From a virus (taxonomy: Duplodnaviria; Heunggongvirae; Uroviricota; Caudoviricetes): a stretch of 33,479 nucleotides of DNA. Location of the stretch: the IMG/VR virus record IMGVR_UViG_2778261246_000010; one strand, written 5' to 3'. This document shows, one piece after another, positions 1,249-18,599 of this stretch. Both the position numbers and the translations under genes were made by a program. Each line of letters opens with the position of its first letter. Position 1 is the first letter of the stretch. The notes below the pieces were generated by a model. That model worked only from the letters and a program-made list of their open reading frames with translations. It was not told where the DNA came from and did no database searches.

Positions 1249-1777
1249 ACGTAAACTTTTTCCGGTTGTTGTCGATAGCTCTATATCCCTCAACCGGAAA
1301 ATAATAATAGTAAAATGCTTAGCCCTGCTAATAATCGCCTAATCCAAACGCCTCATTCATGTTCTGGTACAGTCGCTCAAATGTACTTCAGATGCGCGGT
1401 TCGCTGATTTCCAGGACATTGTCGTCATTCAGTGACCTGTCCCGTGTATCACGGTCCTGCGAATTCATCAAGGAATGCATTGCGGAGTGAAGTATCGAGT
1501 CACGCCATATTTCGCTATCAGGATTCTGTGTGATGGTTACATCGCCCGGCCCAGGGCTGTTTAGTCATCAGCGCTTTCTGACAGTGCTGAGATTTCAACC
1601 TGTTGCAGTAAAAATGAGTAGATATAAGGCAAGTGTGCTGCCAAACCCATCTTTTACGGGGTGAAGGTAGATTTCGTTTGAAGGGTATCTGGTGTCCCCT
1701 GCAGACATCTACTTGAGGCGGCAGGGGATTGATTGGAATGGTGTTTTTTAGATGTGAAAAATATTTTACCCGCTATT

Positions 1778-1978
1778 TTACCCATTGGCGCGGCTTAAGA
1801 GCTTATTTTTGAATTCACAATGGTCACGATATAACCATCTTGCTCGTCCGTGGATAACTTTGGCTTTAGGCAGGTCGCCGGACTTAATCCGGTCATAGAT
1901 GAAGGTTTTACCAAAGCCAGTATCGGCCATGATGAATTTCAAATCAACCAGTGAATCAGGCTGTAGTTCGTGTTGCAT
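1778..1978 (-). CDS. Excisionase-like AlpA/Xis-family HTH protein
   Basis: 66-aa ORF with the AlpA/Xis pattern (TG.GK..IYDRIKSGDLPK....G.ARWL); sits at the distal end of the leftward early operon where lambdoid xis lies. Confidence 0.6.
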   Translation of the reverse strand: MQHELQPDSLVDLKFIMADTGFGKTFIYDRIKSGDLPKAKVIHGRARWLYRDHCEFKNKLLSRANG

Positions 1979-2100
1979 GAGTACTATCTCCGAATATGGA
2001 ATCGAACCTGCAAATCAGGCAATAAAAAGCCGCATTGATGCAGCAATGGTAGGTCTGGATATCTTGAGAAATGAACAGGCCTCATCGAGTGTGAGGCGGG

Positions 2101-2445
2101 TTAGTCATTGCGTAGCTCGCTGATTCTTCTGTAAGTCTCTGGTGCTTTATTCCCGTACGTCTTCATTTCAGACTTCAACAGAGCAACGAGTGAATCCCAT
2201 TCGTTGAGGATTCCTTTGAATGCCGGAACGCGCTTTGCAACCTTGTCGAATGAATCTCTGATTTCTGGAATCTGCTCAACAAGTGCAACGCATCGCCGGA
2301 AATCGGCTACGTCATGTGGAGCGCCGAAGTGATGACCATAGATATTATTTTTCAGTCCACATGCGATTGAGGCAAGAGTTGCGCTACTGATGCCGACATC
2401 GCCAGTCGATTGCCATTTCAAAACCTTCATAGCCAAATCTGACAT
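2101..2445 (-). CDS. Hypothetical exo-xis region protein (114 aa)
   Basis: ORF co-oriented with the leftward operon; no recognisable motif. Confidence 0.45.
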   Translation of the reverse strand: MSDLAMKVLKWQSTGDVGISSATLASIACGLKNNIYGHHFGAPHDVADFRRCVALVEQIPEIRDSFDKVAKRVPAFKGILNEWDSLVALLKSEMKTYGNKAPETYRRISELRND

Positions 2446-2517
2446 TTCTTGTCTCCATAAAACAAAACTCGCCGTAGCGAGTTCAGATAAAAGAAATCTC
2501 CGCGAGTGCGAGGATTG

Positions 2518-2805
2518 TTATTCATTGCCGATATTCACCTTTATAGCGAACACCTTTACCGGTTTATCGCCGAAGTGGGGATGTGTGATTGTCTTGATTT
2601 CATATCCGTCATACGGAACATCAATTCTGCGACTGAAATCGTCGCGCTTCGGATATCCCTTTGTGATAATCAGGCGGTCATATTCGCGGAACATAATTCG
2701 CTTATTCCAGTAGTCATTACACAGGCGATACTCTTCCGTTTTCTCTCCGCGAATCATTGCATCGAAGTATTCACTTTTAACAGCAAGTTGCAGGTTAGCC
2801 ATCAC
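2518..2805 (-). CDS. ASCH-domain-like protein (95 aa)
   Basis: N-terminal pattern (LAVKSEYFDAMIRGEKTEEYR) resembles the ASCH/PUA-like fold signature; start overlaps the stop of the upstream TraR-like gene. Confidence 0.45.
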   Translation of the reverse strand: MMANLQLAVKSEYFDAMIRGEKTEEYRLCNDYWNKRIMFREYDRLIITKGYPKRDDFSRRIDVPYDGYEIKTITHPHFGDKPVKVFAIKVNIGNE

Positions 2806-3023
2806 TTAATCCCCCTTTGTTTGCGGATAAGCTCCAGATCTTCCTGGCAACTTGCACAAGTCCGACAACCCTGAACGGCCAGGCGTCTTCGCTCATCTAT
2901 GGGATCGCCACACTCACAACAATGAGTGGCAGATATAGCCTGGTGGTTCAGGCGGCGCATTTTTATTGCTGTGTTGCGCTGTAATTCTTCAATTTCTGAT
3001 GCTGAATCAATGATGTCTGCCAT
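2802..3023 (-). CDS. TraR/DksA-family C4 zinc-finger protein (73 aa; lambda Orf73-like)
   Basis: Two Cys pairs (CCECGDPI...CRTCASC) in the TraR arrangement; size and position match the TraR-like gene of the lambda exo-xis region. Confidence 0.7.
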   Translation of the reverse strand: MADIIDSASEIEELQRNTAIKMRRLNHQAISATHCCECGDPIDERRRLAVQGCRTCASCQEDLELIRKQRGIK

Positions 3024-3072
3024 CTTTCATTAATCCCTGAATTGTTGGTTAATACGCTTGAGGGTGAATGCG

Positions 3073-3099
3073 AATAATAAAAAAGGAGCCTGTAGCTCC
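3073..3099 (-). terminator. Putative intrinsic terminator (leftward transcript)
   Basis: Hairpin GGAGC-ctgta-GCTCC followed on the minus strand by a T-rich tract. Confidence 0.4.
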
Positions 3100-3121
3100 C
3101 TGATGATTTTGCTTTTCATGT

Positions 3122-3337
3122 TCACCGTTCCTTAAAAACGCCGTTTAACATGCCGATTGCCAGGCTTAAATGAGTCGGTGTGAATCCCATCAGTGTTACC
3201 GTTTCGCGGTGCTTCTTCAGTACGCTACGGCAAATGTCATCGACGTTTTTATCCGGAAACTGCTGTCTGGCTTTTTTGATTTCAGAATTAGCCTGACGGG
3301 CAATGCTGCGAAGGGCGTTATTATGTTCTATTGTCAT
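3122..3337 (-). CDS. Hypothetical exo-xis region protein (71 aa)
   Basis: Internal ATG of the listed ORF with a GAGG Shine-Dalgarno upstream; begins 7 nt after the stop of the upstream 250-aa gene. Confidence 0.5.
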   Translation of the reverse strand: MTIEHNNALRSIARQANSEIKKARQQFPDKNVDDICRSVLKKHRETVTLMGFTPTHLSLAIGMLNGVFKER

Positions 3338-3344
3338 ATTGGCC

Positions 3345-4097
3345 TCACACTTCGAATGCCAGTTGATGGGTAAAGACGTCCCGTTCAGCGTTGTAATTAA
3401 GTGAACTGGCACTGTTGAATGATTCAATGCGTTCCATAAGAACTTGCGTACGGGTTTCTTTACTTGCGGGAGCATATGGCGAACCTACCCAGGATTTGTC
3501 GATGCCTATATTTCTTGCGACGTTCGTGCTGTCTGCAGACGAAAGCGGTACATGAGTAAAAATGTCTTTATTTAACATCCGTAACCCATGAATCTTGGTG
3601 ATTGGGTAGCCGTACTGATCTACAACATGACGTATAAGATCGCGTAGTTTAGCCCGACACGCTCTCGGTCGTTTTGCATCGTATTCCCCCATCGAGCCGA
3701 TGCAGACGCGGGGAAACTCATGGCACAGACGAATAAATCGCTCATCTGGTTCGTTCATGTGCCACACCGGAGCACCAATAAATTTACCGTGAGGCCATGC
3801 CGCAATCAGGGCGTCATTCTCTTCACTGGTTCCGCCGATAACATCCGGGATAACCGCGAATGAGAAACGAGGGTGATTACCCCAGCGTTCAACAAATCTG
3901 TAATATTCATTCCAGTCTACGGCCTTGTTTTTTGTCCAGAATGTGAATGCACCATTATCAAGAGCAAATGATTGGGTGACTTCGGAAGCCAGATCAATCT
4001 GAGCTGGATTAGCAAAACTGATGAATGCGTGTCTGCCTTTCCAGGCTTTCAACGCACAGGTATCGGGAGTTATTGGACCACCGTGAAAATGAATCAT
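3345..4097 (-). CDS. Hypothetical protein (250 aa), function unknown; possibly enzymatic
   Basis: Long ORF, same strand as exo; its ATG overlaps the stop of the small upstream ORF (ATGA). No lambda counterpart of this size in this position. Confidence 0.6.
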   Translation of the reverse strand: MIHFHGGPITPDTCALKAWKGRHAFISFANPAQIDLASEVTQSFALDNGAFTFWTKNKAVDWNEYYRFVERWGNHPRFSFAVIPDVIGGTSEENDALIAAWPHGKFIGAPVWHMNEPDERFIRLCHEFPRVCIGSMGEYDAKRPRACRAKLRDLIRHVVDQYGYPITKIHGLRMLNKDIFTHVPLSSADSTNVARNIGIDKSWVGSPYAPASKETRTQVLMERIESFNSASSLNYNAERDVFTHQLAFEV

Positions 4098-6987: not shown

Positions 6988-7188
6988 TCAGGCAGCTTTG
7001 TTGTTCTGTTTACCAAGTTCTCTGGCAATCATTGCCGTCGTTCGTATTGCCCATTTATCGACATATTTCCCATCTTCCATTACAGGAAACATTTCTTCAG
7101 GCTTAACCATGCATTCCGATTGCAGCTTGCATCCATTGCATCGCTTGAATTGTCCACACTATTGATTTTTATCAATAGTCGTAGTCAT
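6988..7188 (-). pseudogene. ral: ral (restriction alleviation) interrupted by an in-frame TAG at codon 10
   Basis: Minus strand reads ATG ACT ACG ACT ATT GAT AAA AAT CAA TAG TGT GGA ..., i.e. MTTTIDKNQ*CGQFKRCNGCKLQSECMVKPEEMFPVMEDGKYVDKWAIRTTAMIARELGKQNNKAA; the rest is colinear with Ral. Confidence 0.7.
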
Positions 7189-7316: not shown

Positions 7317-7589
7317 TCACCTTGCTGTCAGTTGTTTTGATTTCCTGTAGCCTGCCGCGTAAAGAGCTACATTTGGAAGACAAGTTGAGCCTTCATATTT
7401 TCTGGTCAACGTTGTCAGTGTTATTACTTCTGCTCTCATTGCTGGTTTGCGCTTGCATTGCAAGACCACTCGTGAGGGGGTTGGCCTGTGTAGCTTGTCG
7501 GAGCTAATCGACTCCTGACTTTGCAGATTTGCGCGACGAGCTCTACGGCGAGAAGCTGCGGTGCCTTTAAATTCTGTTTTTCTGGACAT
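7317..7589 (-). CDS. N: N-type transcription antiterminator (90 aa, non-lambda specificity)
   Basis: Begins MSRKTEFKGTAASRRRARRA with an arginine-rich motif; GGGAGGAA Shine-Dalgarno 4 nt upstream of the ATG; first gene of the leftward operon. Confidence 0.75.
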   Translation of the reverse strand: MSRKTEFKGTAASRRRARRANLQSQESISSDKLHRPTPSRVVLQCKRKPAMRAEVITLTTLTRKYEGSTCLPNVALYAAGYRKSKQLTAR

Positions 7590-7613
7590 AGATTCCTCCC
7601 GAATAAACTCTGG

Positions 7614-7665
7614 CGATGCAATCCCGAAGCTACTCCTGAGAGGGGTGCTTCGGCATTGCATCCCA
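7614..7665 (-). promoter_or_regulatory. Long hairpin in the N leader (candidate RNase III processing site)
   Basis: 16-bp near-perfect inverted repeat (gatgcaatcccgaagc / gcttcggcattgcatc) with a 16-nt spacer, between nutL and the N ribosome-binding site. Confidence 0.4.
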
Positions 7666-8043: not shown

Positions 8044-9069
8044 TTATGGGCGAGTGATGGTTGATGCGTTTCCGTTTTCTATTACACCTGCTCGTATCGT
8101 GTAGCTTCCCAAGATTTTTACTGTCCTGTTTTCTTTCATTGCATCAAACAGTATGGCGATCTCGTCTTTATCATCTATGAACGACGTGTCCACCGAAACA
8201 GGGAAACTGTCTTCACTAGATGGTTCGCGGCAGCTTAGGGTTATCTTTTCCGCAGTACGCTTGATTCCATCAATGACTAATTCAAGGTTTCTTTCTTCTT
8301 TTTTTGCTTTTTCGATAGGGTTCTTGATTAGTTCGTGGATTTCTTTGTTAGACAGTTCAACTGTGCTTGCGCCTGATATGACAATTTTGTCAGCATCAGA
8401 CGCGCCTTTTAATACCCCTGTATACGCTTTTGCAGTATGCTCTTGAATCCCTTCGGCGCGCTCTACTGCATCTATGCCCGCTTTAGCTCTAATCGCCTCA
8501 AGCATTCCGTCCCTTAATATCGTCATGCGCTCGTTTTCTGATTTAATCTTGGCTTCTTCGAGCTTTGTTTCTTCTTGCTTGACTTCTACTTCGGCTTTTT
8601 TCTCTAAGTATGATGTACCAACCCATGCACCGCCTATAACGGTGACAGCAAACAAGAAGCATAATGTTTTTTGGCTAGGACTCATACCGTGTGTTACCTT
8701 CTCAAAGGCTTTACCGAATGCTTCAAAAAGCTCTGTTAATGCAGCAAGTATATCAGTACAACCTTCATTAATGGTAAAGATGATCTCTGCTTCCTCTTTA
8801 TCTTTACCAGTTAACCTTTGAAGGTTGTCAGTTTTATATTTTATTAGTGTGAAAACTTTATAAATTTCAGTCTGAAATTCGCATAAACCCTGAGCTAGAG
8901 GAGATGGAAGCGTTCCGTTGTAGCGAGAAGGATCACCATAAATCTTAAAATTCACATTATTGAAGAGGTCTAACTTGATCCTGTCGATAGTGATCTCTTC
9001 GCCACCATCTAACCTTGCAAACAAAGATTCAATGTCGTCCAGACTTGAAACATTAATAATATCTTTCAT
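8044..9069 (-). CDS. 341-aa protein in the Rex position (one predicted TM helix, coiled-coil C-terminal half); candidate exclusion/abortive-infection protein
   Basis: Long ORF directly downstream of cI on the same strand; about 33-38% GC by eye on sampled lines; hydrophobic segment TLCFLFAVTVIGGAWVGTSYL; charged helical region; TATAAT-like -10 and AAGGTG Shine-Dalgarno upstream. Confidence 0.8.
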   Translation of the reverse strand: MKDIINVSSLDDIESLFARLDGGEEITIDRIKLDLFNNVNFKIYGDPSRYNGTLPSPLAQGLCEFQTEIYKVFTLIKYKTDNLQRLTGKDKEEAEIIFTINEGCTDILAALTELFEAFGKAFEKVTHGMSPSQKTLCFLFAVTVIGGAWVGTSYLEKKAEVEVKQEETKLEEAKIKSENERMTILRDGMLEAIRAKAGIDAVERAEGIQEHTAKAYTGVLKGASDADKIVISGASTVELSNKEIHELIKNPIEKAKKEERNLELVIDGIKRTAEKITLSCREPSSEDSFPVSVDTSFIDDKDEIAILFDAMKENRTVKILGSYTIRAGVIENGNASTITRP

Positions 9070-12578: not shown

Positions 12579-12610
12579 AGGCCTGCTGGTAATCGCAGGC
12601 CTTTTTATTT
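12579..12610 (+). terminator. Intrinsic terminator (tR2-like)
   Basis: AGGCCTGC-tggtaatc-GCAGGCCT followed by TTTTTATTT. Confidence 0.65.
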
Positions 12611-12625
12611 GGGGGAGGGTAAATC

Positions 12626-12832
12626 GTGGCTGAGTTAATTTTCTCTGCATTGAGGATTCTCGGTGCTATGTGGATGGTGGCGACGTTCATTGTTGTTGCC
12701 AGCAGTTTTGTCCGGTTGGTAGGCGAAGGTAAAGACCTGGTGGGTGTGCTTTTCGGTAGCATTTTCCTGTGGGTGATTATCGGTGTTATGCCTGTTGTCG
12801 TAGCAAAAGTGGCGTGGCGTTTTGTGAGTTGA
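12626..12832 (+). CDS. Small hydrophobic protein (68 aa, GTG start; two predicted TM segments)
   Basis: ORF just after the terminator with GGAGGG 7 nt upstream of the GTG; highly hydrophobic translation. Confidence 0.4.
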   Translation: MAELIFSALRILGAMWMVATFIVVASSFVRLVGEGKDLVGVLFGSIFLWVIIGVMPVVVAKVAWRFVS

Positions 12833-12839
12833 GGTAACG

Positions 12840-13286
12840 ATGAAGCAAATATACATGCTTCGCAACGAAGCAATCAGAAACAACGCCATAGACGCAATAC
12901 TCTCACTTCCGATCGACGACAAGTCACCTCACGAAGTCCACATTAAAGAACCAAAGCGGAGCAATCCTCAAAACCGCCTTATGTGGGCGTTATTGCAGGA
13001 CGTATCGCGTCAGGTGCTTTGGCATGGAGAGAGACTTGCGCCGGAGGACTGGAAAGACCTGTTCACTGCCCTGTGGCTTAAGACCAAAAAACTGGAGCAA
13101 CGAAGTGCGCCTGGTATCGACGGTGGCGTTGTTATGCTTGGCGTGCGTACCAGCAAAATGCGAAAGGCCAGCATGACTGAGCTTATCGAAATCATGTTCT
13201 GGTTCGGCTCAGAGCGCAACGTGCGGTGGAGTGATGACTCCCGGCGAGAGTATGAATGGTCACAACGAAAAGGGAAGGCTGCATGA
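12840..13286 (+). CDS. ninB: NinB recombination protein
   Basis: 148-aa translation matches lambda NinB (orf146). Confidence 0.9.
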   Translation: MKQIYMLRNEAIRNNAIDAILSLPIDDKSPHEVHIKEPKRSNPQNRLMWALLQDVSRQVLWHGERLAPEDWKDLFTALWLKTKKLEQRSAPGIDGGVVMLGVRTSKMRKASMTELIEIMFWFGSERNVRWSDDSRREYEWSQRKGKAA

Positions 13287-13810
13287 CTATCAAATCAAAT
13301 ACGCCAGCACACGACAAGGACTGCTGGCAAACGCCGCTTTGGCTTTTTGATGCGCTGGATATTGAGTTTGGATTCTGGCTGGATTCAGCTGCGAGCGACA
13401 AAAACGCTCTGTGCGCTCACTGGCTAACTGAGGCCGACGACGCGCTAAATTCTGAGTGGATAAGCCACGGTGCAATCTGGAATAACCCACCGTACAGCAA
13501 TATCAGGCCGTGGGTGGAAAAAGCCGCTGAGCAGTGCATACAACAGCGACAGACGGTAGTTATGCTTGTGCCAGAGGATATGTCAGTCGGATGGTTCAGC
13601 AAGGCTCTGGAGAGTGTCGACGAAGTTCGCATTATCACTGATGGACGGATTAATTTTATCGAACCATCGACAGGGCTGGAGAAGAAGGGAAACAGCAAAG
13701 GCTCCATGCTGCTGATTTGGCGACCGCTCATCAGTCCTCGACGGATGTTTACTACCGTATCCAAAGCGGCATTGATGGCGATCGGGCGGGGCGTCAGGAG
13801 GGCGGCATGA
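13283..13810 (+). CDS. Phage Dam-type DNA N6-adenine methyltransferase
   Basis: NPPYS motif ([12 protein letters not shown]); occupies the lambda ninC/ninD position; ATGA overlap with ninB. Confidence 0.8.
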
Positions 13811-13983
13811 GGCGACAGCGACGAAGCATCACCGACATAATCTGTGAAAACTGCAAATACCTTCCAACGAAACGCTCCAGAAATAAACGCAAGCCAATCC
13901 CAAAAGAATCTGACGTAAAAACCTTCAACTACACGGCTCACCTGTGGGATATCCGGTGGCTAAGACATCGTGCGAGGAAATGA
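13807..13983 (+). CDS. ninE: NinE
   Basis: [23 protein letters not shown]... matches lambda NinE; ATGA overlap with the methyltransferase. Confidence 0.85.
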
Positions 13984-13985
13984 CA

Positions 13986-14387
13986 ATGCTTTTAATTCAA
14001 CCTGGATTTGGCCTTAGCATCAAAAAAGGACACATGTTTGGCGAGAAAGAGTCACAACGAAAAATGGTGTCTATCCGGTTGCCATTTATCAGTATTTATT
14101 GGCTAAACAGGGAGGCAACAAATTATTGGTATACATGCGCCAGAGCAGCATTTAACGACCCTGACTGGTTTGTGAAAAACCACCATGCGGTTCGTCAGGC
14201 AAAGAGAAAGGCCAATACGACATACATGAAGGCGTATCGAAAAGCATGGAAAGAACACCGCGATCGATACCAACAAGACATGGAAAAGCTTGAATCAGAA
14301 AACATGGAATTAAGACGAAAGCTCGGTGAAGCAAAACGAGACATTGATGCTTACAAGCGACTTTTTAATGGTGAAAGCCATGCTTAG
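13986..14387 (+). CDS. Hypothetical nin-region protein (133 aa) with C-terminal coiled coil
   Basis: ORF inserted between ninE and ninF, where lambda has no gene; GAGGA Shine-Dalgarno; C-terminal heptad-like region. Confidence 0.5.
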   Translation: MLLIQPGFGLSIKKGHMFGEKESQRKMVSIRLPFISIYWLNREATNYWYTCARAAFNDPDWFVKNHHAVRQAKRKANTTYMKAYRKAWKEHRDRYQQDMEKLESENMELRRKLGEAKRDIDAYKRLFNGESHA

Positions 14388-15363: not shown

Positions 15364-16012
15364 TGGCAGCAAATACCGAAATATTTGGGTAGTTGGCGAT
15401 CTGCACGGATGCTACACGAACCTGATGAAAAAACTGGAGACGATAGGATTCGACACCAAAAAAGACCTGCTTATCTCGGTGGGCGATTTGGTTGATCGCG
15501 GTACAGAGAACGTCGAATGTCTGGAATTAATCACATTCCCCTGGTTCAGAGCTGTACGTGGAAACCATGAGCAAATGATGATTGATGGCTTATCAGAGCG
15601 TGGAAACGTCAATCACTGGCTGCTTAATGGCGGTGGCTGGTTCTTTAATCTCGATTACGACAAAGAAATTCTGGCTAAAGCTCTTGCCCATAAAGCAGAA
15701 GAACTTCCGTTAATCATCGAACTGGTGAGCAAAGATAAAAAATATGTTATCTGCCACGCCGATTATCCCTTTGACGAATACGAGTTTGGAAAGCCAGTTG
15801 ATCATCAGCAGGTAATCTGGAACCGCAAACGAATCAGCAACTCACAAGACGGGATCGTGAAAGAAATTAAAGGCGCGGACACGTTCATCTTTGGTCATAC
15901 GCCAGCAGTGAAACCACTCAAATTTGCCAACCAGATGTATATCGATACCGGCGCAGTGTTCTGCGGAAATCTCACATTGATTCAGGTACAGGGAGAAGGC
16001 GCGTGGGCATAA
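15347..16012 (+). CDS. ninI: NinI Ser/Thr protein phosphatase (lambda PPase type)
   Basis: GDLHG and GNHE metallophosphatase motifs; colinear with lambda orf221. Confidence 0.9.
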
Positions 16013-16491
16013 GAGAACTAAACCTCACCAAAGAACAGCATGAGTGGCTGAATGGCTGGCTTGAACTGTGGGGCGCATGGGTTTATTCAGGTCGTCTGGA
16101 AAAGCGTATGAGCAGCGTAATAGCGAAGTTCATGGAGAGCGTAGAGCCGGGAAGAGTTATGACAAGGCCAATGTGCAATGATGATGATGGAATGTTGATT
16201 TCTCAGGTCGTCGATTCCGTCATGTGCATTGACAAGAAAGCCTTTGGCATCCTCCTCAGCTACTACGCTCATGGTTCTTCCAAGCACGCCATTGCATCTT
16301 ACTATCATCGCGTCGCAAGACCTCGCAAGATGTTATGCCGTGGCGGCGGGCGCATTCAAAAACCATCGCTCGCAACCTGTCGACGGGAAGTTGACGAAAT
16401 CCTTAATGCCTCGTTGTTTATGATTTGCCCGGTTCTGGATAGTGCGTTTAAAAACCGGAAACGTGTAGAGAAAATTAAACATGTAGCATAG
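16003..16491 (+). CDS. Q: Late antiterminator Q (non-lambda family)
   Basis: Position after ninI and before the late promoter; features shared with the Q-antiterminator family (WGAW, DDD, YY); GTG start overlapping the ninI stop. Confidence 0.65.
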
Positions 16492-16581: not shown

Positions 16582-16656
16582 GGGTCAGTCGTATAAAGGT
16601 CATTACGGAAGGCTGTTAACCTTCTTATCGTGGTTCGAGTCCACGCTGTCCCGCCA
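16582..16656 (+). tRNA. tRNA-like gene, anticodon GTT (Asn); acceptor and D stems imperfect
   Basis: Hand-folded cloverleaf: anticodon stem GAAGG/CCTTC with loop CTGTTAA, T-arm CGTGG-TTCGAGT-CCACG, 3-prime CCA; one acceptor-stem mismatch. Confidence 0.5.
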
Positions 16657-16661
16657 AATAT

Positions 16662-16737
16662 GCTGGTTTAGCTCCAATGGTAGAGCAGTCGCCTTGTAAG
16701 CGAATGGGTAGCGGTTCAAGTCCGTTAACCAGCACCA
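16662..16737 (+). tRNA. tRNA, anticodon TGT (Thr)
   Basis: Perfect 7-bp acceptor stem GCTGGTT/AACCAGC, D-arm GCTC-CAATGGTA-GAGC, anticodon loop CTTGTAA, T-loop TTCAAGT, 3-prime ACCA. Confidence 0.7.
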
Positions 16738-16855: not shown

Positions 16856-17071
16856 ATGAAATCAATGGACAAAATCTCTACTGGCATTGCCTACGGAACA
16901 TCCGCTGGTAGTGCGGGATACTGGTTTTTACAGTGGTTGGATCAGGTCAGTCCGTCACAGTGGGCTGCAATTGGTGTGCTGGGAAGTCTAGTTCTGGGCT
17001 TTTTGACTTATCTGACAAATCTGTACTTCAAAATCAGAGAAGACAGAAGAAAGGCTGCGAGAGGTGAATAA
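16856..17071 (+). CDS. S: Class II holin / pinholin (phage 21 S-type) with dual-start motif
   Basis: 71-aa, two TM segments, MKSM dual-start motif; matches my recollection of the S21 pinholin. Confidence 0.9.
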
Positions 17072-17568
17072 TGCCTCCGTCATTACGAAAAGCTGTTGCA
17101 GCTGCTATTGGTGGCGGGGCTATTGCTATAGCATCAGTGTTAATCACTGGTCCAGGTGGTAACGATGGTCTGGAAGGTGTCAGCTACATACCATACAAAG
17201 ATATCGTTGGCGTATGGACTGTATGTCACGGGCATACAGGAAAAGACATCATTCCCGGTAAAACGTATACCGAAGCAGAATGCAAAGCCCTCCTGAATAA
17301 AGACCTTGCCACGGTAGCCAGACAAATTAACCCGTACATCAAAGTCGATATACCGGAAACAACGCGCGGCGCTCTTTACTCATTCGTTTACAACGTGGGT
17401 GCTGGCAATTTCAGAACATCGACGCTTCTGCGCAAAATCAACCAGGGCGATATCAAAGGCGCATGTGATCAGCTACGTCGCTGGACATACGCTGGCGGTA
17501 AGCAATGGAAAGGTCTGATGACTCGTCGTGAGATTGAGCGTGAAGTCTGTTTGTGGGGGCAACAATGA
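17071..17568 (+). CDS. R: SAR endolysin (phage 21 R-type lysozyme)
   Basis: Gly/Ala-rich N-terminal signal-anchor-release segment followed by a lysozyme domain; start overlaps the holin stop. Confidence 0.9.
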
Positions 17569-17943: not shown

Positions 17944-18219
17944 ATGTTAAGTAACCTTCCCGGATTGCTGAATGTGGCGTTATGCACGGTTATCGTGCTG
18001 ACGCTCTTTTTTTATCGTCGTCGCGATTCCAGGCATAAACCGCTGATGTCATGGCTGGCCTGGCTGCTGATGCTGCTGTATGCCTTTGCGCCTCTCAGCT
18101 ATCTGTGTGGTTGCCCGTTAGCAACGGGCTGGCTGGATGTGTTTTTTAATCTGCTGTTCTGCGTGCTGGTGATACGCGCACGCGGGAACGTCACAAGAAT
18201 CTTTCCATTGTTGAGGTGA
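17944..18219 (+). CDS. Small membrane protein (91 aa, about 3 TM segments); holin-like candidate
   Basis: Strong GGAGGAGG Shine-Dalgarno 7 nt upstream; three hydrophobic stretches; immediately upstream of the M15 peptidase gene. Confidence 0.55.
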   Translation: MLSNLPGLLNVALCTVIVLTLFFYRRRDSRHKPLMSWLAWLLMLLYAFAPLSYLCGCPLATGWLDVFFNLLFCVLVIRARGNVTRIFPLLR

Positions 18220-18221
18220 AT

Positions 18222-18599
18222 ATGTCGGGTAAATTCAGATTCAGCCGCCGGAGCGAGAAAAATCTGGAAGGCGTCAAACCACAGCTGGTTGCTGTAGTTC
18301 GCCGCGCCCTTGAACTGTCGGAGGTTGATTTCGGTATTACGGAAGGCCTGCGCACGAAAGAACGCCAGAAACAGCTGGTTGCAGAAGGCAAGAGCCAGAC
18401 CATGAACAGCCGCCACCTGACCGGTGATGCGGTGGATGTTGTGGCCTGGGTTGGCAGCCAGGTGTCATGGGACTGGCCTCTGTACGAGAAAATCGCGCAG
18501 GCATTTAAGCAGGCTGCCGCAGAGCTGGGAACTGCCATCGAATGGGGCGGGGACTGGAAAACGCTGAAAGACGGACCTCACTTTCAGTTGAAGCGTTGA
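18222..18599 (+). CDS. Peptidase M15-family zinc peptidase (VanY-like; candidate second endolysin)
   Basis: SxHxxGxAxD motif present as SRHLTGDAVD plus a downstream His; start 2 nt after the preceding stop. Confidence 0.75.
   Translation: MSGKFRFSRRSEKNLEGVKPQLVAVVRRALELSEVDFGITEGLRTKERQKQLVAEGKSQTMNSRHLTGDAVDVVAWVGSQVSWDWPLYEKIAQAFKQAAAELGTAIEWGGDWKTLKDGPHFQLKR

Follow-up and report, generated by a model that had tools for sequence, protein, structure and literature searches.

The enzymes of VT-2, HP1, and P1 have been cited as Dam-like phage methyltransferases whose role "is still not well understood" (PMC7556043). M.EcoVT2Dam of prophage VT2-Sa is listed as an orphan enzyme acting on GATC, in a paper that also cites its cloning (PMC6602927). 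We equated M.EcoVT2Dam with orf32 of VT2-Sakai (NP_050531.1) by elimination within positions 1-24000 of this prophage, where orf32 is the only annotated methyltransferase (early region included). The same gene occurs in other phages, as orf10/L0094 in 933W and as the Dam of Phi24B and HK97. The Dam proteins of HP1 and T1/Tls are the founding members of the PF05869 and TIGR01712 families, and those of HP1 and T1 are reportedly GATC-specific. HP1 is a P2-like phage and the T1-like phages are virulent, and their dam genes lie in genome contexts unrelated to the one described here. In lambda, the interval between ninB and ninE is occupied by ninC and ninD.

We analyzed a stretch of 33,479 nucleotides (hereafter, the window), which is a lambdoid prophage 99.994% identical to the E. 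coli RM10740 prophage located beside the csc sucrose locus. Its nin region carries a gene for a phage N6-adenine DNA methyltransferase of 175 amino acids (13283..13810, + strand; PF05869 'Dam', TIGR01712), which RefSeq names in RM10740 'phage N-6-adenine-methyltransferase' (WP_089515634.1). The protein is identical to orf32 at 172 of 175 residues (98%), and the two genes share the product length, the ninB-X-ninE position, and the overlapping junctions with their neighbors. They differ by three conservative substitutions (I60/V, L149/F, and R169/Q), none of which falls in an invariant column, and by their setting, as the prophage of the window is a non-Stx lambdoid beside the csc locus. Given the 98% identity to orf32, equated with M.EcoVT2Dam, the target of the enzyme is most likely the adenine of GATC. 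The founding members are more distant (35% identity for HP1 Dam and 34% for that of the T1-like phage Tls) and carry the same T-P, L-D-x-A-A, and N-P-P-Y-S-N motifs in the same order, Tls Dam having in addition an N-terminal extension of ~57 residues and a 14-residue insert. M.EcoGIX, of SAY specificity, was set aside as a member of the family, being described as plasmid-borne and specific for single-stranded DNA.

The ORF runs from an ATG at 13283 to a TGA at 13808-13810 (175 codons). Starting at an alternative in-frame ATG, at 13256, would lengthen the protein by nine residues (184 amino acids), and we dropped this option because the family profiles begin at residue 2-4 of the shorter product; the existence of homologs of 175 amino acids and the choice of 13283 by RefSeq also oppose it. 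A purine-rich, Shine-Dalgarno-like sequence, AAGGGAAGG (13270..13278, + strand), can be read 4 nt 5' of the ATG, within the 3' end of ninB. The gene is joined to both neighbors by ATGA overlaps, one formed by the ninB stop (TGA, 13284-13286) and the methyltransferase start (ATG, 13283-13285), the other by the methyltransferase stop and the ninE start (13807-13810). The first-pass annotation had described the gene as translationally coupled to ninB; the overlap is directly visible, while coupling itself is what such overlaps would suggest. The copy of VT1-Sakai differs at 12 nucleotides, 9 of them in third codon positions, with two amino acid changes, and this bias points to purifying selection on the protein and its frame. 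Together with a Pfam match of 215 bits, the substitution pattern argues that the ORF did not arise by chance.

An antisense ORF of 174 amino acids (13417-13941, - strand) overlaps the methyltransferase gene and ninE; its full length matches phrog_37455, a PHROG with no assigned function. We rejected it as a gene: in its frame, 10 nucleotide changes produce 5 amino acid changes. The substitution pattern thus shows no constraint on the antisense frame, and phrog_37455 is probably a family built from mis-called shadow ORFs.

The family assignment relies on profile matches that span the protein. The match to PF05869 ("DNA N-6-adenine-methyltransferase (Dam)") reaches 215.5 bits (cutoff, 28.1; E = 4.8e-64) and aligns residues 4-169 with positions 1-167 of the 169 in the profile, and that to the TIGR01712 equivalog ("phage N-6-adenine-methyltransferase") reaches 263 bits (cutoff, 97) and covers all profile positions (1-165/165). 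PHROG 111 and the PADLOC 'orphan methyltransferase' models also match. Host-type Dam is described by another profile, PF02086, to which the protein has no match, PF05869 being the sole Pfam family recovered at E ≤ 0.01. No restriction gene adjoins the ORF, whose neighbors are ninB, ninE, a 133-aa ORF, ninF, and ninG. These results support the assignment of the ORF to the phage 'Dam' family (PF05869/TIGR01712), as a putative orphan N6-adenine DNA methyltransferase. The enzyme is a Dam by its probable target and its name only and is not a homolog of host Dam (PF02086). A tblastn search with the protein retrieved 1902 phage records, 244 of them at 95% identity or more, a set that includes 933W, Stx1- and Stx2-converting phages, and lambda-like isolates; among the more remote matches, at 30-47% identity, are T1-like phages and one from Pasteurella.

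The catalytic motif IV reads N68-P69-P70-Y71-S72 (13484..13498, + strand). It is invariant in alignments of 25 and of 56 homologs and is common to HP1, F108, and Tls Dam. The first-pass annotation had rightly placed an NPPYS motif in a 175-aa ORF, and its N6-adenine methyltransferase assignment is borne out by the two full-length profile matches above curated cutoffs. Before motif IV, the residues W15, T17, P18, L33, D34, and A37, which make up the W-x-T-P and L-D-x-A-A motifs, are invariant or conserved in at least 90% of the sequences. The second of these motifs lies in a motif I-like region, F31-W-L-D34-S-A-A37-S38 (13373..13396, + strand), delimited by conservation and by the structural model, where it corresponds to the predicted strand beta1; D34 is invariant, and L33 and A37 are kept in at least 90% of the 56 homologs. 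From the order of motifs in gamma-class enzymes, this region would form the S-adenosylmethionine pocket. The catalytic and cofactor motifs are unchanged across the 56 homologs, down to 33% identity.

A first structural model of the protein, built with 25 close homologs, was mediocre (pLDDT, 70.6), and a Foldseek search of the PDB with this poorer model returned nothing significant; a sequence search of the PDB with the methyltransferase gave chance matches only (E > 0.1). A profile search from an alignment that included HP1, F108, and Tls Dam recovered 3032 family members, and the 56-sequence alignment drawn from these yielded a confident second model (pLDDT, 92.2; pTM, 0.89). This model has the class I (Rossmann-like) fold of S-adenosylmethionine methyltransferases. 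Its elements are, in order, a helix (19-29), the strand of the L-D-x-A-A motif (31-34), a short strand near 46, a strand (64-67) leading into NPPY, a helix (75-88), four strands (92-97, 114-119, 141-146, and 155-160), and a C-terminal helix (161-174).

The confident model suggests a minimal catalytic domain, nearest to the M.TaqI-type enzymes. The gamma-class representatives of this type (M.TaqI, M.BseCI, CamA, MmeI, and the type I HsdM) have 380-750 amino acids, are 10-16% identical to the phage protein, and possess large C-terminal or separate recognition domains or subunits, which the latter lacks; moreover, its segment from motif I to NPPY is reduced to ~30 residues. The alpha-class enzymes E. 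coli Dam, T4 Dam, and DpnM (PF02086) contain DPPY and have a target-recognition domain inserted, with 241-258 residues in the solved chains, compared to 175 for the phage enzyme. No target-recognition domain is found in the latter between the cofactor-binding and catalytic halves, where a host-type Dam would have it. In the mechanism that we propose, the N-terminal helix bears the conserved W-x-T-P, a short Rossmann-type sheet would complete the fold, and the N-P-P-Y-S loop, ~30 residues past the L-D-x-A-A strand, would hold the flipped adenine. A methyl group would then be transferred from S-adenosylmethionine to the N6 of the flipped adenine in GATC. The target would be read by loops of the catalytic domain itself, probably those with the conserved residues 121-140 (G-R-x-x-F ... 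N-x-K-G).

The nin region of the window agrees with that of lambda in operon, strand, tR2 terminator, and flanking genes. Between tR2 and the Q gene (16003-16491), the rightward strand encodes ninB (the Orf recombination mediator; 12840..13286, + strand; PF05772, E = 1.5e-48; phrog_72), the methyltransferase, ninE (13807..13983, + strand; PF05322, E = 7e-44), ninF, ninG, ninH, and a NinI-like phosphatase. A three-way alignment showed that the window shares the ren-tR2 segment with lambda and is near-identical to it from ninF onward but differs in between: ninC and ninD are missing, the methyltransferase gene is present, and the ninB allele is diverged. Two additional small ORFs also distinguish the window from lambda. 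The first (12626-12832, + strand), between tR2 and ninB where lambda is almost sequence-free, encodes a hydrophobic protein of 68 amino acids matching phrog_1165 (unknown function). The second (13986-14387, + strand), between ninE and ninF and absent from lambda, encodes 133 amino acids matching phrog_1511 and H0039 of VT1-Sakai; its matches to Pfam and NCBIfam were all insignificant.

The methyltransferase gene, between NinB and NinE, was thus placed correctly by the first-pass annotation at the site of lambda ninC/ninD. The further statement that it replaces these genes is true of its position relative to lambda but not as strict replacement, for the gene order in the Salmonella phage vB_SosS_Oslo is ninB-MTase-ninC-ninD-ninE. 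The presence of both in Oslo indicates that the methyltransferase gene is an independent mosaic cassette and not a functional substitute for ninC/ninD. The ninB/methyltransferase joint has the same GGCTGCATGA as the lambda ninB/ninC joint, and conserved gene-boundary sequences of this kind may act as recombination points. Copies at 95% nucleotide identity or more are found in 1566 of 5426 complete E. coli genomes (~29%), with up to five per genome, and among the examples listed the annotated copies lie between ninB and ninE.

The reading that we favor, with a probability of about 85%, is that the ORF encodes an active orphan DNA N6-adenine methyltransferase, most likely specific for GATC, which belongs to a mosaic nin module, is expressed as a delayed-early gene, and tops up GATC methylation. 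Its substrate would be rapidly replicating phage DNA in cells where host Dam is scarce or missing, and the phage would no longer depend on the latter. Progeny genomes would be fully methylated at GATC, including the 111 sites of the window, a number that offers the enzyme plentiful substrate. A test for GATC avoidance put this number at 0.85 times what base composition predicts and 0.67 times the Markov expectation, ratios similar to those of other palindromes. Full methylation would guard against restriction by enzymes specific for unmethylated GATC and keep MutH from nicking GATC sites that lack methylation on one or both strands. In T1-like phages, the BASEL study saw no simple relationship between the presence of methyltransferase genes and resistance to restriction (PMC8594841). 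The topping-up role is our preferred interpretation of what the enzyme would contribute.

The gene is embedded among the recombination genes ninB and ninG, and overlaps the former, which would suit a main role in phage DNA transactions and not in anti-restriction: the marking of GATC sites would control replication, packaging, or recombination, or would shield Red/NinB/NinG recombination intermediates from MutHLS mismatch repair. There is a precedent in P1, which requires Dam methylation for packaging, at the GATC sites of pac (PMC12707154). However, we found no lambdoid process that depends on GATC methylation, lambda itself lacks this gene, and the module is found with varied neighbors, which makes such a main role unlikely. 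It is quite unlikely that the family recognizes DNA in an unusual manner (for example, by a dimer or through the loop at 121-140), or that its real selective value lies in counter-defense or in an anti-MutH role during lytic replication.

A delayed-early timing is suggested by the position of the gene. A tR2-type intrinsic terminator (12579 to 12602 or 12612, + strand) was found by a terminator scan upstream of the nin genes and is identical to the lambda stretch downstream of ren, and no convincing or strong promoter was found between it and the methyltransferase gene. An N-like antiterminator gene is present (7317..7661, - strand; phrog_271, E = 7.6e-26), and by analogy with lambda, read-through to the nin genes would depend on its product. 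Hence, situated past tR2 and lacking a convincing promoter, the methyltransferase gene should be silent in the repressed prophage and should be made after induction or infection, as an N-dependent product of pR. In Phi24B, the 528-nt dam gene, the same as here, responded significantly to induction, and qPCR grouped it with the lytic-cycle genes (PMC3342100), which agrees with a delayed-early, lytic timing.

This pattern also bears on the idea that the enzyme acts in the lysogen, where it would change or reinforce the GATC methylation of the host and, for example, stabilize lysogeny or alter host expression. An antiserum screen picked up the Dam of Phi24B in cultures of lysogens, and the authors proposed that it may supplement host Dam; the same work cites Murphy et al. 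2008 for the dependence of stable 933W lysogeny on host Dam (PMC3342100). The signal in lysogen cultures is nevertheless explained by spontaneous induction, given that qPCR placed the gene in the lytic-cycle group, and the pR operon position behind tR2 argues against expression in the prophage state. In addition, GATC is already methylated by the host, so the enzyme would bring no new motif; GATC and CTGCAG were the only motifs detected in PMC6602927. The proposal of the first-pass annotation that the enzyme could alter host methylation is therefore unlikely for the lysogen, in E. coli, which already methylates GATC, and we regard a role in lysogeny as very unlikely. With GATC methylated by the host and a gene of the lytic phase, comparing the methylomes of lysogen and cured strains would be uninformative in a Dam+ host, while expression in a dam- host, to judge from a citation in PMC6602927, has apparently already been done for the VT-2 enzyme. 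A different specificity or another substrate (relaxed sites, single-stranded DNA, or RNA) is highly improbable for this protein, and so is a loss of activity in a prophage undergoing decay, given its 98% identity to orf32, equated with the GATC enzyme M.EcoVT2Dam (PMC6602927), its intact invariant residues, the selection seen on its coding frame, and the retention of the gene in 1566 genomes.

The prophage itself may rarely offer the enzyme a productive cycle. The window starts with host DNA (1-1248, + strand), where the first ORF encodes a LacY-family oligosaccharide transporter that adjoins cscA and cscR in RM10740. Near it (1249-3300), RefSeq annotates in RM10740 a TorI-like excisionase and no integrase, and the prophage thus appears unable to excise alone. 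Outside the window, J is truncated at the RM10740 locus. Because of the truncated J and the lack of an annotated integrase at this locus, the methyltransferase gene may rarely act in a productive cycle. The sole structural difference between the window and RM10740 lies at ~17055-17069, where the lysis region of the latter has a 1.3-kb IS3-family element, and its absence indicates that the window comes from a near-identical strain or from an IS-free version of the locus.

Other genes of the prophage may also concern DNA modification or defense. An ORF of 250 amino acids upstream of exo (3345-4097, - strand) matches the first half of the phrog_887 profile, labeled 'queuine tRNA-ribosyltransferase' (E = 5e-98); it has no match in Pfam, NCBIfam, PADLOC, or the PDB and is hypothetical in RefSeq. 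If the PHROG label is true, it could be a second DNA-modification gene of the prophage (DpdA-like, 7-deazaguanine). An ORF of 341 amino acids (8044-9069, - strand) lies on the strand of the cI-like repressor, between the latter and the N-like gene, in the position of lambda rexA/rexB. It matches phrog_6191 (unknown function) only, with no match in Pfam, NCBIfam, or PADLOC, and is a candidate for an exclusion or defense gene expressed in the lysogen. The gene of the antirestriction Ral family (6988-7188, - strand) is a pseudogene with an internal stop according to RefSeq in the identical RM10740 sequence, so that one restriction-alleviation function may be lost while the methyltransferase is intact. 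Just 3' of Q, genes for tRNA-Asn (GTT) and tRNA-Thr (TGT) are found (16582-16737, + strand), in the same position as the tRNA genes of VT2-Sakai. Further downstream, an RrrD-type lysozyme (17071-17568, + strand) and an M15 metallopeptidase (18216-18599, + strand) are two different lysis enzymes, between which the annotation of RM10740 shows holin genes and a holin fragment, suggesting that two lysis cassettes were fused in this prophage.

The methyltransferase gene is already known, being named in RefSeq and described by curated Pfam and NCBIfam models, and it has little weight as a discovery, with the 98%-identical orf32 equated with the cloned M.EcoVT2Dam. The practical value of the analysis lies in the correct annotation of the gene, which should be that of a putative lytic-phase orphan GATC methyltransferase and not that of a paralog of host-type Dam. 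For the biology of the family, what matters is that a methyltransferase of 175 amino acids, devoid of a recognition domain, appears to read GATC, and that it is kept in about 29% of complete E. coli genomes despite the methylation of GATC by the host.
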